NCBI GenBank assembly: GCA_965222615.1
Contig: CBDCUI010000008.1
Span: 128,001-192,000, forward strand
Direction of reading: 5' to 3'
DNA length: 64,000 nucleotides
From: Gammaproteobacteria bacterium
Lineage (GTDB): Bacteria > Pseudomonadota > Gammaproteobacteria > UBA4575
Made by a program: the position numbers and the translations under genes. The notes beneath the pieces were generated by a model. That model was not told the DNA's origin. It did not search any database and worked only from the letters and a program-made list of their open reading frames with translations. Below are positions 38,756-45,732 of the stretch, one piece after another (position 1 is the first letter of the stretch; the number at the start of each line of letters is the position of its first letter).

Positions 38756-40048
38756 TTACCAAGTAAGGGCTCCCCCGGTTTGGTATTCGGTAACGCGAGT
38801 TTCAAAGAAATTCTTTTCTTTTTTGAGGTCTAAGATCTCAGACATCCATGGGAAGGGATTGCTCACTCCAGTGTATTGTTGCGGCAAACCAATTTGTGCG
38901 TATCTTCGATTGGCAATAAATTTTAAGTATTCTTCAAACGTGGGTGCATTCAACCCTAAAATGCCACGCGGCATGGTGTCGTAGGCATATTGGGTTTCTA
39001 GTTTCACGCCGTCTTCTATGAGCTCTATCATTTCTTGTTGAAATTCTTCGGTCCATAAATGCGGGTTTTCTAATTTGATTTGGTTGATGACATCGATGCC
39101 AAAGTTCATGTGCATAGATTCATCACGCAAAATGTATTGAAATTGTTCGGCAACACCTGTCATTTTATTGCGACGGCCCATGGAAAGGATTTGCACAAAG
39201 CCAACATAGAAGAAGATGCCTTCAAACACGACGTAGAAGGCAATTAGATCGCGTAGTAAACGTTGATCGTCTTCTAACGTGCCCGTTTTAAAGTTTGGAT
39301 CGCCTAAGCTTTGTGTATAGGGTAATGCCCATTCGGCTTTATGGGCGACTGCAGGCACTTCACGATACATGTTAAACACTTCACCTTCATCCAAGCCTAA
39401 GGATTCAATGCAGTATTGATAGGCATGGGTGTGTACCGCTTCTTCAAACGCTTGGCGCAATAGATATTGGCGACACTCTGGGTTAGTGATGTGTCGGTAT
39501 ACCGCTAGTACTAAGTTATTGGCAACCAATGAATCTGCGGTGGAGAAGAAACCTAGGTTACGTTTAATAACAGTGCGTTCGTCTTCGGTTAGGCCTTCTG
39601 GATTTTTCCACAGTGCGATATCCGCAGTCATGTTGATTTCTTGTGGCATCCAGTGATTGGCACATCCGTCTAGGTATTTTTGCCAAGCCCATTCGTATTT
39701 AAATGGAACCAGTTGATTTAAGTCGGCACGACAGTTGATGATTTTCTTGTCGTCTACTTGAATACGACTGGCGCCCATTTCAATATTTTCTAAACCGGTA
39801 GCCCCTCTGTTTTCTTCAATCTCATGGTGTTCTGCTTGTTCGCGTAAGGCGTTTATTTCTTCAGCTGCTTTCACAATACCGGAATCACGCGGGTTTGCTA
39901 CGACTTGTTCAAAGGTCGTTAATGTTGGTATCGGTCTTCCGGGCGGTGTGGTATTTTCATCTTCAGATGATTCGGCAAATACAGCAGGCCCGGTAGCACT
40001 TGTTCGGTTTTCTTTTGCATCTGTAATTGGATCTTCCCAGTTTTGCAT
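38756..40048 (-). CDS. nrdB: Class I ribonucleotide reductase beta subunit
   Basis: [44 protein letters not shown]. Confidence 0.96.
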
Positions 40049-40235: not shown

Positions 40236-43200
40236 CTATTGGCAGGCTTCACATTCTGGATCTAAGATCGAACAAGCCTTTGGTGCTTCGCTACCATTGC
40301 CGTTGCTCACGGCATTGAGTTTGCTTTCTCGACCTTGGATGGTACTTTTTTCTACATGTGTTGCGCCCATTGAGCGTAAGTAGTAAGTAGTTTTCAAACC
40401 ACGTACCCACGCCAACTTATACAAGTTATCCAATTTTTGGCCGGATGGCTCGGACATGTAGAGGTTGAGCGACTGTGCTTGATCAATCCACTTCTGACGC
40501 CGCGATGCGGCTTCTATTAACCAGCGTGGATCGATTTCAAACGCAGTGGCGTATAAATTTTTTAACTCTGCTGGAACACGATCGATGGATTGCACACTGC
40601 CATCAAAATATTTGAGGTCATTGGCCATGACTTCGTCCCAAAGATCACGTTCTTTCAAATCTTCAATCAAGTATGGATTGCTGACGGTGAATTCACCGGA
40701 TAAATTCGATTTCACATATAGGTTTTGATAGGTAGGTTCGATACTTTGAGTTACGCCGCAGATATTAGAAATGGTTGCAGTCGGTGCAATCGCCATGGTG
40801 TTGGAGTTGCGCATACCTACGGTTTTTACCCGTTGACGTAGGCTGTCCCAATCCATGCTGATGCTACGGTCTTGATTTAAATAACTGCCACGACCTTGTT
40901 CTAATAACTCGATGGAATCGATCGGCAATATGCCTTGTTCCCACAGTGAGCCTCTAAAGGTTGAATAAGTGCCGCGCTCTTCAGCTAAATCGGTGGAGGC
41001 CTTGATGGCGTAGTAACTAACTGCTTCCATGGAGCGATCGGCAAACTCTACGGCTTCTTCATTGCCATAAGGAATGTGCTGTTTATAGAGTGCATCTTGA
41101 AAACCCATCATGCCTAACCCCACTGGGCGATGGCGTAAGTTGGATTGACGTGCCTTGGATACACTGTAGTAGTTATATTCAATCACGTTGTCCAACATGC
41201 GCATGGCAGTGGTAATGGTTTCTTCAAGTTTTTTCAGGTTTAAACCGTTCTCGTCAATGTGTGCTGCGAGATTCACGGAACCTAAGTTACATACCGCAAT
41301 TTCATCATCATTGGTATTGAGGGTAATTTCCGTACACAGATTAGAAGAGTGCACTACCCCTGCATGTTGTTGCGGAGATCGTAAGTTGCAAGGATCTTTA
41401 AAGGTAATCCACGGATGGCCTGTTTCATATAACATGCCTAGCATCTTGCGCCATAGGTGCACGGCATTTACTTTTTTGCAGTTTTTAATTTCGCCACGCT
41501 CGGCCTTTTGTTCATACTCTAGGTAACGCGCTTCAAACTCTTTGCCACTTAGTTCGTGTAAGTCCGGCGTTTCATGCGGTGAGAATAATATCCAGTCTTG
41601 TTCTTCGCAGACACGTTTCATGAATAAATCCGGCACCCAATTGGCGGTGTTCATGTCGTGGGTACGACGACGATCGTCACCGGTGTTTTTGCGCAGCTCT
41701 AAAAATTCTTCAATGTCTAAATGCCAGGTTTCTAAATAGGCACACATGGCACCTTTACGCTTGCCGCCGTTGTGTGCAAGGGCAGCACTGGTCATGTAAC
41801 TCTCATCGCCCTCTACTTTAAGGTCATAAACAAAAAGCAGGGGTTTAATTTCACGGTGTGAACGAATGCGTGTAAAGATGTGACCTTTCCACTGCAACCA
41901 GTTTTGTTTTTTAATCGCTTTGCAGTTCACTAATGAGGCAATTTTCGCTACTGCAGGAATGCGCAGGTCAAAGGCCTTAACCGTTCCTTTGAATTGAATC
42001 TTTTCACCATCGGCACGTGTTGCACAGTGATCTTGCTGTCGTTCACGATATTGTCCTGCACTTGGAATGCCTAAGCGCAATAACTGGTAACGTAAGCCTT
42101 CAACTAATGCTTGTGAAGTATTGGTGAAGTAGATTTCTTTGCCGCGACTACTTGTCTTATTTTTATTGGCCCCATCAGTTTCTAATAAGCCTTTAATTAA
42201 TGAAAGCGTTTGTGTAGGAGGCAAATGCGCATAGCGTCTGGCAATACGTTTTTTGTTATTGGCGTTATACAAATCATCGCGAGAGAAAATAAAGCCGTTT
42301 TGGTCACCGCGTATAAAACGCCCGGTAGTGGCTTCACGTGCAACTCCAACATTTGCCGCCCAACCAAGTTGCATATAGTTTTTACGCTGATTCTTTTCCC
42401 AGAAATGAATTCCATGTTGCTTGAGGTAATTGCGTACAAACTCCAAGTATTCATCTTTATTTGGGTTCCCCGAAACACCCCATTCCAATCCATCTTTAGT
42501 GCAATGACCATCACCTAATAAAATGCCGTATAAGCGTGCATCGTCTTCGTCCATTCCCTCTACTGGAATCACTTCTTGCGGAATTACTTGTGCAACATAA
42601 TCGCCTTTGCTTAATTGCCCGGCTTCAATCCATTGCGCACGTGCTTTGCCTTTTTCTAGCCAGTTATAAGTGCGCTCGTTAGTTTGTTCCATGGGGATGC
42701 CTTGAATGGCCCACAGAGGATGGCCGGCCGTAACTTGCATGCTCGTTAAAGAATGTTTGGCGCACATCTCCACCATAGGGTCGGTTTGGTTGTAGGCCAT
42801 TTTGTCGATGACTTCGCGATATTGACCGCATTGGCCAAGTACTAAATCACCTGGCTCAATATCTTTAATGGATTTAGTTCCATCCGCGGTATACACCGTA
42901 GTGTCCGGTGCGAAACATTGATTCACGGCTACAGCAGTATCGTTGGCAACTTTAAGAAAAGGAACCACGCCTTGGGATTTGCCATTGGTGCCTTTGATGT
43001 GTGAACCCATGGCGCGTACGCGTGACCAATCGTTACCTAAGCCACCGGCAAACTTAGATAACATGGCATCGTCTTGAATGGCTTCAAAGATACCGTGTAA
43101 GTCATCCGGTACCGTAGTTAAATAACACGAAGATAACTGTGGGCGTAATGTGCCGGAGTTAAACAGGGTTGGGGTGGAACTCATGAAGTCAAAAGATGAC

Positions 43201-44288
43201 AACAAGTTGTAAAACTCGATGGTGCGTGCCTCGCGTTCTACTTCATTGGTGGCTAAACCCATGGCAACGCGCATGAAAAATGCTTGCGGTAATTCAAAGC
43301 GAGTGCCTTCACTATGAATAAAGTAACGATCATACAAAGTTTGCATGCCCAGATAGGTAAACTGGTGATCTCGTTCGGGCTTAATGGCCTTGCCTAATTT
43401 TTGTAAGTCGTACTCACTTGCCAGTTTTGTGTCCAATAACTCCAGCTCTGCGGCTTTGCGAATATAACGCTCAAAATAATCTGCGTATTGAAACGACATT
43501 TCTTTGAAAGTGGCTTCGCAAGGTACACCATGTACAAAACTCAGTGCTTCACGACGTAACGTATCGAGTAATAAGCGTGCAGTAACGTACGTGTAGTTAG
43601 GTTCTTGTTCAATCAAGGTACGTGCACTCATGGTAAGTGCAGTACCGACTTCGTTTTCAGGTATACCGTCGTATAAATTACGTAAGGTTTCGTCAATGAT
43701 AGGTTGCGCTGCTACGTGTTCGGTATCGACACAGGCTTCTTGCACCATGCGGGTTAAGCGCTCGGTGTCTAATGGTTTTTGTTTGCCTTGTGCATCCAAT
43801 ACATTGATGTCAGGAGAACCTTGTTGCAGTTCTTCTTCTTCGGTCTCTTGTTTGGCTTGTTGTGCACGCTCTTGTGAACGTTGCTCTCTGTATAGAACAT
43901 AGGCGCGGGCAATTTTGTGTTGGCCATAGCGCATTAAGGCCAACTCCACTTGATCTTGAATATCTTCTATATGAAAAGTGCCACCTTGAGGCCGGCTACG
44001 GGAGAGGGCATAAAAAACCTTATCGGTGATTTCATTCACCATCTCGTGAATACGGGATGAGGCCGCGGCATTACCCCCTTCTACCGCAAGGAATGCCTTA
44101 GTGACGGCGACCTTGATTTTGTCACGATCAAAGCTGGTGACTTTGCCATTACGGCGAATTACACGGTACTGCCCAGGCGCAGTAGCCGCTATTTCAAGGC
44201 TTGAAGGTTCAGTTTGTTCTTGGTCTGGACTGGGTCTTTTTTCGTCGGCAATAGTGGCAAGTTCTGGCTGCATTCGGTCTCTCAGCAA
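40236..44288 (-). CDS. nrdA: Class I ribonucleotide reductase alpha subunit with two ATP-cones and an intein
   Basis: VIRRNG ATP-cone plus second cone, STPTLFNSG, QLSSCY, SSNLCTEI, VCNLGS, APTATIS, KTTYY, C-terminal CEAC; start may be MQPEL at 44273. Confidence 0.96.
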   Translation of the reverse strand: MLRDRMQPELATIADEKRPSPDQEQTEPSSLEIAATAPGQYRVIRRNGKVTSFDRDKIKVAVTKAFLAVEGGNAAASSRIHEMVNEITDKVFYALSRSRPQGGTFHIEDIQDQVELALMRYGQHKIARAYVLYREQRSQERAQQAKQETEEEELQQGSPDINVLDAQGKQKPLDTERLTRMVQEACVDTEHVAAQPIIDETLRNLYDGIPENEVGTALTMSARTLIEQEPNYTYVTARLLLDTLRREALSFVHGVPCEATFKEMSFQYADYFERYIRKAAELELLDTKLASEYDLQKLGKAIKPERDHQFTYLGMQTLYDRYFIHSEGTRFELPQAFFMRVAMGLATNEVEREARTIEFYNLLSSFDFMSSTPTLFNSGTLRPQLSSCYLTTVPDDLHGIFEAIQDDAMLSKFAGGLGNDWSRVRAMGSHIKGTNGKSQGVVPFLKVANDTAVAVNQCFAPDTTVYTADGTKSIKDIEPGDLVLGQCGQYREVIDKMAYNQTDPMVEMCAKHSLTSMQVTAGHPLWAIQGIPMEQTNERTYNWLEKGKARAQWIEAGQLSKGDYVAQVIPQEVIPVEGMDEDDARLYGILLGDGHCTKDGLEWGVSGNPNKDEYLEFVRNYLKQHGIHFWEKNQRKNYMQLGWAANVGVAREATTGRFIRGDQNGFIFSRDDLYNANNKKRIARRYAHLPPTQTLSLIKGLLETDGANKNKTSSRGKEIYFTNTSQALVEGLRYQLLRLGIPSAGQYRERQQDHCATRADGEKIQFKGTVKAFDLRIPAVAKIASLVNCKAIKKQNWLQWKGHIFTRIRSHREIKPLLFVYDLKVEGDESYMTSAALAHNGGKRKGAMCAYLETWHLDIEEFLELRKNTGDDRRRTHDMNTANWVPDLFMKRVCEEQDWILFSPHETPDLHELSGKEFEARYLEYEQKAERGEIKNCKKVNAVHLWRKMLGMLYETGHPWITFKDPCNLRSPQQHAGVVHSSNLCTEITLNTNDDEIAVCNLGSVNLAAHIDENGLNLKKLEETITTAMRMLDNVIEYNYYSVSKARQSNLRHRPVGLGMMGFQDALYKQHIPYGNEEAVEFADRSMEAVSYYAIKASTDLAEERGTYSTFRGSLWEQGILPIDSIELLEQGRGSYLNQDRSISMDWDSLRQRVKTVGMRNSNTMAIAPTATISNICGVTQSIEPTYQNLYVKSNLSGEFTVSNPYLIEDLKERDLWDEVMANDLKYFDGSVQSIDRVPAELKNLYATAFEIDPRWLIEAASRRQKWIDQAQSLNLYMSEPSGQKLDNLYKLAWVRGLKTTYYLRSMGATHVEKSTIQGRESKLNAVSNGNGSEAPKACSILDPECEACQ
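41769..42917 (-). mobile_element. Intein (383 aa) with LAGLIDADG homing endonuclease and Gly at +1
   Basis: AVNQ|CFAPDTTVYTADG block A, VTAGHPLW block B, LYGILLGDGH and LIKGLLETDG endonuclease motifs, VYDLKVEG block F, ALAHN|GGKRKGA; removal restores AVNQGGKRKGA. Confidence 0.93.
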
Positions 44289-44390: not shown

Positions 44391-44437
44391 ATACTATAAA
44401 TTGGGGTCTACAACTCGTCAAGCACAATATGTTGTGT
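44391..44437. promoter_or_regulatory. Tandem NrdR boxes
   Basis: ATACTATAAATTGGGG (44391) and GCACAATATGTTGTGT (44422), 31 bp apart, match acaCwAtATaTwGtgt upstream of nrdA. Confidence 0.85.
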
Positions 44438-44465: not shown

Positions 44466-44474
44466 TGTGGATAA
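44466..44474 (-). promoter_or_regulatory. DnaA box upstream of nrdA
   Basis: TGTGGATAA is the reverse complement of consensus TTATCCACA; next to the NrdR boxes. Confidence 0.7.
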
Positions 44475-44690: not shown

Positions 44691-45071
44691 ATGAATGACC
44701 CGAAAAATCCATCCCAGAAAATTTCTGAGCAGGAAATCAAATTGCATGCGGAGCTGGCCGATCATGGTGGCTGTGCCAATTCTGAGCCGTTTGCCCTACG
44801 TGTGATGGGCGATAGCATGGAGCCTGAATTTAAAGATGGTCATATCATTATTATCGATTCGGCGGCAGCAGTTGAAAGTGGCAGTTATGTGTTGGCAATG
44901 GTCAATGATGAATATATTTTTCGCCAGTACATCATTGAAGATGGGCATCATTTATTACGTGCACTTAATGATGGCTATGAAGAAATTGAAATAAATGGGA
45001 TAGAAGCTATTCGTGGCGTGATTGTGCAACGAGCAGGGACTAGACGTAAAGAACACAAACATTACGTCTAA
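44691..45071 (+). CDS. Stand-alone S24 (LexA/UmuD-like) peptidase-fold protein
   Basis: FALRVMGDSMEPEFKDG.IIIID, L.ALN..Y; no DNA-binding domain. Confidence 0.82.
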   Translation: MNDPKNPSQKISEQEIKLHAELADHGGCANSEPFALRVMGDSMEPEFKDGHIIIIDSAAAVESGSYVLAMVNDEYIFRQYIIEDGHHLLRALNDGYEEIEINGIEAIRGVIVQRAGTRRKEHKHYV

Positions 45072-45141
45072 CTTTTCTTATATTTTTTTATAGAATTTAG
45101 TGCTTTTAAGCTGGTGCCTTTAATCTTGGATTCACCTAATA

Positions 45142-45732
45142 ATGAAAAAAAGGGAAATCAGAGCCATATACGATAATCATACAATAACTGTATATCAGGC
45201 CTATGGAGCTGAGATTGCAAAGCCTGCAATTAAAAATCAAACTTTTATTTCTCCATTTAAAATGAATCGCATGACTTGGATTAAACCGTCTTTTCTATGG
45301 ATGATGTATCGAAGTGGATGGTCGCATAAAGAAGGCCAGGAACATGTCTTATCGATAAAAATAACTCGCGAAGGTTGGGAATGGGCATTGAATCATTCTT
45401 GTTTGTCTCACTTTAGAAAAAATCTATATGCATCCGAAGAAAAATGGGGAAATGAATTACGGAAACAACCAGTTCGAATACAATGGGATCCTGAAAAAGA
45501 TATTTATTTAAATAATCTTGAATATAAATCGATTCAAGTTGGTTTATCTGGCGCTGCTGTTGAAAAATACGTAAACGAGTGGATAGTTAATATTTCTGAT
45601 ATCTCACAAGACTGCAAAAAAATACACTCTTTATTATCGAGCAATAAAATTGAACAAGCAGAAAGCTTATTACCTCACGAGAAAATATATCCTATTTCAG
45701 GCACTATTAGGAATATTATTAATGCTTCTTAA
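45142..45732 (+). CDS. DUF4291 domain protein
   Basis: IRAIYD..TITVYQAY, RMTWIKPSFLWMMYRSGW, VRIQWDPE, SIQVGL. Confidence 0.88.
   Translation: MKKREIRAIYDNHTITVYQAYGAEIAKPAIKNQTFISPFKMNRMTWIKPSFLWMMYRSGWSHKEGQEHVLSIKITREGWEWALNHSCLSHFRKNLYASEEKWGNELRKQPVRIQWDPEKDIYLNNLEYKSIQVGLSGAAVEKYVNEWIVNISDISQDCKKIHSLLSSNKIEQAESLLPHEKIYPISGTIRNIINAS

Follow-up and report, generated by a model that had tools for sequence, protein, structure and literature searches.

The class Ia ribonucleotide reductase (RNR) gene nrdA in the stretch of DNA analysed here (64,000 nucleotides, positions 128,001 to 192,000 of the forward strand of contig CBDCUI010000008.1, assembly GCA_965222615.1, from a gammaproteobacterium of the lineage UBA4575; hereafter called the window) is interrupted at its specificity loop, loop 2, by a genuine LAGLIDADG intein whose C-extein begins with glycine. 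Its fold, residues, insertion site and life style mark the element as a class 1 homing intein, but it does not have the one defining feature common to the mechanisms of classes 1 to 3, a Cys, Ser or Thr as the first residue of the C-extein (the +1 residue). The reading that we favour, with a probability of about one half, is that NrdA would be matured by splicing without a +1 side-chain nucleophile, along the route described for type A bacterial intein-like (BIL) domains. The element had been pointed out in an earlier reading made by a model from the letters alone (the sequence-only reading), several claims of which are taken up below.

The intein and its boundaries

The precursor gene, its exteins and the functional parts of the intein lie in the window as follows.

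40236 to 44288, minus strand: nrdA precursor open reading frame (ORF), class Ia RNR alpha subunit plus intein, 1350 aa counted from TTG
42918 to 44288, minus strand: N-extein, 457 aa, ending in AVAVNQ
41769 to 42917, minus strand: intein, 383 aa (ORF residues 458-840), a Hint splicing domain interrupted by a LAGLIDADG homing-endonuclease domain
40236 to 41768, minus strand: C-extein, 510 aa plus stop, with the remaining barrel domain, NLCTE, VCNL and a C-terminal CEAC
42915 to 42917, minus strand: Cys1 codon TGT, the N-terminal nucleophile, Cys in 198/198 aligned family members
42717 to 42731, minus strand: block B, T63-A-G-H66-P67, with T63 and H66 kept in family members with Gly and with Ser at +1
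42504 to 42533, minus strand: LAGLIDADG motif 1, LYGILLGDGH, with Asp136 in 176/198 members
42171 to 42200, minus strand: LAGLIDADG motif 2, LIKGLLETDG
41769 to 41831, minus strand: blocks F and G, VYDLKVEGDESYMTSAALAHN, with Asp365 (F:4), Glu372, His382 and Asn383
41766 to 41768, minus strand: +1 Gly codon GGC, the first C-extein residue and the first Gly of the loop-2 motif QGGKRKG

The junctions read ...DTAVAVNQ/CFAPDTTV...MTSAALAHN/GGKRKGAMCAYL, where the slash marks the boundary between extein and intein. In Pfam, the RNR barrel domain of the ORF falls into two stretches with a LAGLIDADG_3 domain between them; the latter scores above the Pfam cut-off, and the Hint families at the start of the insert match weakly and below it. 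The insert was modelled with AlphaFold2 together with ten flanking residues at either end (mean predicted local distance difference test score 90.7), and the best PDB matches of the model are the endonuclease-bearing inteins PI-SceI, TliVMA, PhoVMA and PI-PfuI, with free-standing LAGLIDADG enzymes next. The two-domain fold is the same as in PI-SceI (Sce VMA1; 1ef0, 1vde) and TliVMA (7qsu), with Foldseek E values of 1.9e-17 to 4.9e-17 and template-modelling scores of up to 0.62-0.68. When the PDB is searched by sequence, weak N-terminal matches to PI-SceI are the only ones found (E 0.07-0.8). The nearest structures and the nearest sequences are inteins, and the insert has the Hint fold with an inserted LAGLIDADG endonuclease domain.

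As read from its sequence, the intein itself supplies the full set of class 1 catalytic residues: Cys1, the Thr-x-x-His of block B (T63 and H66), the block F Asp, and the C-terminal His-Asn (H382 and N383). What it does not have is the Cys, Ser or Thr at +1 of a class 1 intein, which is replaced by Gly (GGC). It does not belong to class 3 either, as it starts with Cys and has Asp365 at position 4 of block F. The codon of Glu372 (41802-41804) stands where block F usually has the His of F:13.

The insertion lies exactly between the Gln and the Gly of QGGxRxG because intein-less orthologues and contigs show the exact empty site. The intein-less nrdA genes of three genomes of the same genus or the same family read AVNQGGKRKGAMCAYL there (empty site AVNQGGKRKG), two further loci not matching the pattern used, and the loop-2 site is invariant in intein-less orthologues. 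The insert is thus in frame, at a conserved host site, and has exact intein-less alleles. Sliding boundaries can be excluded, as the empty-site sequence is unambiguous and no alternative boundary yields Cys, Ser or Thr at +1; an earlier C-junction before the conserved Thr376 or Ser377 is impossible, since no Asn stands in front of either. The description given in the sequence-only reading, a homing-endonuclease intein in loop 2 of NrdA with 383 residues, Cys1, TxxH, His-Asn and two LAGLIDADG motifs, is correct in every checkable point and is borne out by Pfam, the matches of the AlphaFold2 model and the empty sites.

In the runs X1, X3 and X4, contigs from related organisms (about 85-90% alike) skip 41766-42917; the joints run from 41765 to 42918 and from 41762 to 42918, and the skipped stretch is replaced by 3 or 6 letters. 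One habitat thus contains filled as well as empty sites, which is a setting in which homing could happen. No intein was found in 24 other genomes from the family, among them one of the genus itself; of 400 sampled other genomes of the window's class, 10 carry it, spread over 9 families. An earlier locus search of genome contigs with a single protein, in which none of 61 pattern matches was confirmed, was superseded by this 400-genome search. The endonuclease is apparently intact, and the intein is probably still mobile.

Glycine at +1 in the intein family

Since the interpretation depends on a single codon, the GGC at 41766-41768 was checked in contigs of two samples, which agree with it without differences (X1 record 5 over 41676-43100, X3 record 9 over 41676-41810) and contain no Ser, Thr or Cys codon there; both samples come from one study, and X1 may be the window's source sample. 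Together with the conservation across the family, this leaves the glycine claimed in the sequence-only reading as genuine. A homologue search with the intein region scored 8000 candidates, 1019 of which reached E <= 0.001; of these, 120 were listed, the window's own copy included, and in all of them Gly follows the terminal Asn (119 HN/G and one SN/G). A search of cluster representatives (1.84 billion, 50% clustering) gave 1123 proteins at E <= 0.001, of which 150 were listed; among the 67 listed representatives aligned to the last intein residue, the +1 residue is Gly in 47, Ser in 17, and Ala, Glu and Cys in one each. Nearly all of these are RNRs interrupted at the same place (VNQ/, VDQ/ or INQ/), and the protein with Cys at +1 (P0263) has only intein domains and no RNR domain in Pfam. 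All ten intein carriers among the 400 sampled genomes have Gly at +1 as well.

The intein is a member of a very large allelic family at one RNR loop-2 site, whose insertion point follows the Gln of Q-G/S-G-x-R-x-G and precedes its first Gly (or Ser), and it is an ordinary member of that family. It had been anticipated that the insertion site might not be new, and indeed it has over 1000 database relatives and an nrdA intein of Azotobacter already in print, which is discussed further below.

Some family members deviate in other ways. In P0254 the C-junction reads HN/EKRNGSF, the first two loop-2 residues after the intein seemingly missing. P0137 (425 aa) and P0152 (389 aa) are stand-alone proteins of about intein length, 34-39% identical to the window's intein; both have no RNR domain in Pfam and are too short for one, and P0137 does not end in His-Asn. 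Such proteins could be derivatives that stand free or have decayed, or else fragments of gene calls. Several NrdA proteins with the family intein are 350-950 aa longer, namely P0085 (2297 aa), P0006 (1685), P0081 (1695) and an ORF of genome G260 (1680). They carry extra Hint and intein-splicing Pfam domains, and at least one additional intein elsewhere in each protein is probable.

The need for an active enzyme

The window's genome is 99.79% complete and contains one gene with the Pfam family PF02867, which is the intein-bearing nrdA. In controls PF02867 also detected class Ib and class II enzymes, and NrdD was not found in this 99.79% complete genome. The C-extein is 90% identical, without gaps, to that of an intein-less orthologue from the same genus and has kept all catalytic motifs. 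Its ratio of nonsynonymous to synonymous substitution rates (dN/dS) against this orthologue is 0.056, at a dS of 0.96 that is near saturation. Values against L006 and L009 were set aside, since the alignment was made without gaps and the L006 match at least differs in length. As nrdA is the sole RNR gene found and its C-extein is under purifying selection, the precursor must give an active enzyme. The suggestion that the gene is functional is thus upheld by the intact ORF and the dN/dS as well as by the search for other RNRs in the genome, of which none was found.

The same is true of three, arguably four, of the ten other carriers: no RNR gene besides the intein-bearing nrdA was found in G096, G125 and G230, and none in G395 apart from a fragment of 137 aa. 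G292 is also without another RNR, and its nrdA (C6:188939-191624) changes frame and has two TGA codons near the 3' end, which reflects either an assembly error or a decaying gene. A second RNR gene is present in five carriers (G152, G201, G260, G349 and G388), and NrdD was found in none of the ten. Two intein-less relatives, G001 of the same genus (C1:236004-236798) and G002 of the same family (C14:21323-22132), carry in addition a distant RNR-like gene (32% identity) with an ORF of about 600 aa, and this gene was not found in the window's genome.

Possible routes from precursor to enzyme

A Cys, Ser or Thr at +1 is described as required for splicing (PMC2814812, PMC4031507). According to PMC4031507, the branched intermediate cannot form without a +1 nucleophile, which class 3 inteins need as well. 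Because the C-extein of NrdA begins with Gly, the transesterification to the +1 residue and the final acyl shift of class 1 cannot occur, and the earlier conclusion that canonical chemistry of classes 1 to 3 does not apply here, for want of a +1 nucleophile and hence of a branched intermediate, agrees with that source. The one documented way round this is that of type A BIL domains: according to the same paper, these domains, which end in His-Asn and have no +1 nucleophile, can splice through a thioester, Asn cyclisation and attack by the freed amine (PMC4031507). By analogy, an N-to-S acyl shift at Cys1 of the NrdA intein would give an N-extein thioester, after which Asn383 would cyclise and free the C-extein with an N-terminal Gly. 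The alpha-amine of this Gly, held beside the thioester in the Hint active site, would then attack and form the Gln-Gly peptide bond, and no branched intermediate would arise on the way. This route is favoured because the residues for the first two steps are invariant and the amine of Gly is the least hindered.

Several observations weigh against splicing by the freed glycine amine. Cleavage products dominate in the type A BIL domains described in PMC4031507. The conservation of Cys1 and of His-Asn would be equally expected if only the two cleavages matter, and no intein residue is clearly specialised for activation of the Gly amine, as position 372 varies. Furthermore, five of the ten other carriers have a second RNR, so that the intein-bearing copy need not work everywhere, and in G292 the sole copy is the frame-shifted one.

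The most serious alternative, which we nevertheless consider unlikely, is that the intein only cleaves: the thioester would be hydrolysed or thiolysed, Asn383 would cyclise, and the exteins would stay unjoined, so that RNR would work with a two-chain alpha subunit (457 and 510 aa) held together by the barrel fold. These two cleavages are the reactions certain to be possible without a +1 nucleophile, and the conserved Cys1, TxxH and His-Asn fit them as well as they fit splicing. The prevalence of cleavage in type A BIL domains (PMC4031507) points in the same direction, and the NrdA of phage Aeh1 is fully active as two separately encoded chains (PMC3045599). In NrdA of the window, however, the nick would fall between the Gln and the Gly of loop 2, where the new charged chain ends should harm the control of specificity. 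In class Ia structures from E. coli, the loop-2 residues at this point read the substrate base. The break in the Aeh1 protein is at another place, with the thiyl Cys on one side and the last active-site Cys on the other, and the two chains need special tail peptides to assemble (PMC3045599), whereas nothing is left on either NrdA fragment here to serve as such a tail. Moreover, none of 1200 nrdA sequences was split, which has been taken as pressure for one chain (PMC3045599).

Ligation by another route than the attack of the Gly amine is quite improbable. In this case the acyl group would first pass to another nucleophile of the C-extein, such as the Cys at +9 (GGKRKGAMC), or a host factor would join the pieces. 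This Cys is found in the window and in most close relatives, but it is also present in intein-less orthologues and is missing in the Gly+1 carriers P0126 and P0128 (GGKRNGAFAAYL), P0144 (GGKRKGSFAIYL) and P0116 (GAVFGYL), and it was therefore rejected as a surrogate nucleophile. A shared host factor is unlikely because the inteins sit in very different RNRs and hosts. A conditional switch, in which processing would be slow or blocked until redox state, thiols or nucleotide demand permit it, could be added to splicing as well as to cleavage, and the intein would then regulate the supply of RNR. The central function of loop 2 and the presumable thiol sensitivity of the Cys1 thioester might speak for such a switch, which we still regard as improbable, given that a sporadic intein (none of 24 genomes of the family, 10 of 400 of the class) with an apparently intact endonuclease has the pattern of a selfish mobile element and not that of a conserved regulator. 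That the +1 Gly is a sequencing mistake, or nrdA an unprocessed pseudogene, is hardly credible. The frame shift near the 3' end of the gene in G292 is the observation in favour; against it stand the agreement of two samples' contigs on GGC, the Gly of 120/120 listed homologues and 10/10 carriers, the intact ORF, the sole RNR of a 99.79% complete genome and the dN/dS of 0.056.

Serine relatives and residues that follow the +1 state

Family members with Ser at +1 (for example P0171, P0162 and P0184) are about 30-34% identical to the window's intein, sit at the same site after the loop-2 Gln and are found in hosts that read NQ/SGKR. For a Ser+1 host, 120 extein relatives were listed, and 61 uninterrupted loop-2 starts among them were classified as G (32), S (22) or A (7), one of the 32 G rows (P0353, KN/GGG) being in fact an intein junction; further relatives read QGS, QGN, QNG or QEG at loop 2. 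The Ser+1 inteins are located in RNRs with a native Ser at this position, and canonical splicing is therefore possible for them.

For a comparison of the two states, 215 inteins were extracted from 389 stored proteins (169 HN/G, 44 HN/S, 1 SN/G and 1 KN/G). A FastTree tree of the 198 inteins of at least 300 aa (165 Gly and 33 Ser, the window's included) requires only two changes of the +1 state, in a sample biased by 120 rows that are closely related to the window's intein. Two changes are likewise required in an IQ-TREE quick tree of 73 rows (53 Gly, 20 Ser), whose well-supported branches force two. One pair of Ser inteins is nested in the window's half of the tree, and a Ser clade of 18 rows is the sister of a Gly clade of 28 rows. 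Gly is found on both sides of the deepest split, and in this unrooted tree Gly+1 is a possible ancestral state. The pattern of two changes would fit a mechanistic barrier between Ser sites and Gly sites.

The catalytic residues are shared by both groups. Across the 198 inteins, C1, H66 and N383 are conserved in 198, D365 in 197 and H382 in 196; T63 is kept in at least 85% of each group, and Y374 and T376 are conserved in both. C1, TxxH, the Asp of block F and HN persist even in mini-inteins at Gly sites from which the endonuclease has been lost (P0259, 179 aa; P0366, 173 aa).

The sequence-only reading had proposed a check of whether Glu in block F and Gly at +1 co-vary, and the outcome is negative. 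Although Glu is the most frequent residue at position 372 in the 165 Gly+1 inteins (E 96, H 29, A 16), it is a trait of one sub-clade: the 24 Gly rows in the window's half of the tree have E in 16, P in 5, A in 2 and H in 1, while the other Gly clade (28 rows) has H in 21, A in 4, K in 2 and S in 1. The Ser clade of 18 has H in 17 and N in 1, and the Ser pair has S in both. Position 372 follows phylogeny rather than the +1 residue, and the link was rejected. A better candidate is Pro67, directly after the block B His (codon 42717-42719), which is present in 159/165 Gly+1 inteins and in 0/33 Ser+1 inteins. Of the 52 columns with the same conserved residue in both Gly halves, only that of Pro67 has lost it in both Ser clades. 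Pro at this position also occurs in some canonical inteins. The putative connection of Pro67 with Gly+1, which is based on two independent switches only, can serve as a lead.

The nrdA locus and its surroundings

The following features lie next to the gene.

38756 to 40048, minus strand: nrdB, RNR small subunit, directly downstream of nrdA
44422 to 44437, plus strand: NrdR-box-like palindrome upstream of nrdA, with 2 mismatches to the consensus
44466 to 44474, minus strand: perfect DnaA-box consensus upstream of nrdA

The N-extein comprises two ATP-cone stretches, the all-alpha domain and the first 72 positions of the barrel domain (Pfam), as well as QLSSC (translation). As had been stated, QLSSC is seen in the N-extein of the translation, and NLCTE and VCNL are seen in the C-extein. 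The ATP-cone, all-alpha and barrel domains, the three motifs and the adjacent nrdB identify the product as class Ia NrdA. The database copy of the precursor (P0002) has 1345 aa, and judged by this length the start of nrdA would fit an ATG 15 bases downstream of the TTG. NrdB has 430 aa, and its Pfam small-subunit match begins at residue 111; the preceding about 110 residues, at the N-terminus, are rich in acidic residues, Pro and Thr.

Both regulatory boxes had been described as retained. This holds for the DnaA box, which is perfect, and for NrdR in so far as a single box-like palindrome with two mismatches is present. The same genome contains a nrdR gene. Neither motif is enriched across the whole window. 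Divergently from nrdA, at 44691-45732 on the plus strand, lie an ORF of 126 aa with a Peptidase_S24 domain (LexA/UmuD-like) and a DUF4291 ORF of 196 aa.

Relation to known systems and significance

The NrdA intein resembles class 1 LAGLIDADG inteins in Cys1, the block B Thr and His, the block F Asp, the terminal His-Asn, the conserved site, the sporadic spread and the exact empty sites, and is unlike them in that its C-extein begins with Gly. The Ser+1 RNR inteins are homologous to it, with the same site and the same conserved residues, and differ in forming two clades and in having no Pro after the block B His. BIL domains are not known to contain a homing endonuclease or to move into empty alleles. 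With type A BIL domains as defined in PMC4031507, which summarises Amitai 2003, Dassa 2004 and Aranko 2013, the intein shares the N-terminal Cys, the C-terminal His-Asn and the absence of a +1 nucleophile. However, it is located in the invariant loop 2 of RNR and has two LAGLIDADG motifs, whereas BIL domains sit in variable regions (PMC2814812). The split NrdA of Aeh1 resembles a nicked two-chain enzyme in that a class Ia alpha subunit whose gene was broken by a mobile element is active as a pair of chains; it differs in that the break is at gene level, was made by a free-standing endonuclease at another position, came with added tail peptides and involves no intein chemistry (PMC3045599).

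In Azotobacter chroococcum and A. vinelandii, a LAGLIDADG-3 intein in class I nrdA has been reported (Achr_15980, aa 442-800; Avin_33290; PMC4465626). The host is likewise gammaproteobacterial and the position is similar to that in the window; the +1 residue and splicing are not discussed in the available part of that paper (PMC4465626). Our literature search found no paper treating the mechanism of a Gly+1 RNR intein, and the supplementary intein tables of PMC4760082, which lie outside that search, may list such inteins and their +1 residues. What the window's instance adds is the argument from the sole RNR, the tree with two switches and, with the block F link rejected, Pro67 as the candidate in its place. 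An InBase entry under the name 'Avin RIR1 BIL' would imply that curators had noticed the oddity; the name was not found in the literature searched.

A family of over a thousand database relatives breaks the rule of Cys, Ser or Thr at +1, and does so at the specificity loop of an essential enzyme. In the window's genome and several others, the intein-bearing gene is the only source of deoxyribonucleotides. We tentatively suggest, while holding it to be somewhat less probable than not, that Gly+1 is the majority and possibly the ancestral state and that the family routinely splices an essential enzyme by aminolysis with the Gly amine, which would make it a fourth mechanistic class of inteins. 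In such a class T-x-x-H-Pro would be a candidate signature, and the Ser+1 alleles would be secondary moves to loops that start with Ser.

If the exteins are indeed ligated, the intein would be a natural, nucleophile-free and traceless protein-ligation module that leaves only Gly, which would be useful in protein engineering, where the Cys, Ser or Thr scar at +1 is a constraint. The definition of inteins, and the rules for genome annotation derived from it, would then need widening. If the intein only cleaves, many bacteria would run a two-chain RNR with a nick in loop 2, something new to RNR enzymology.

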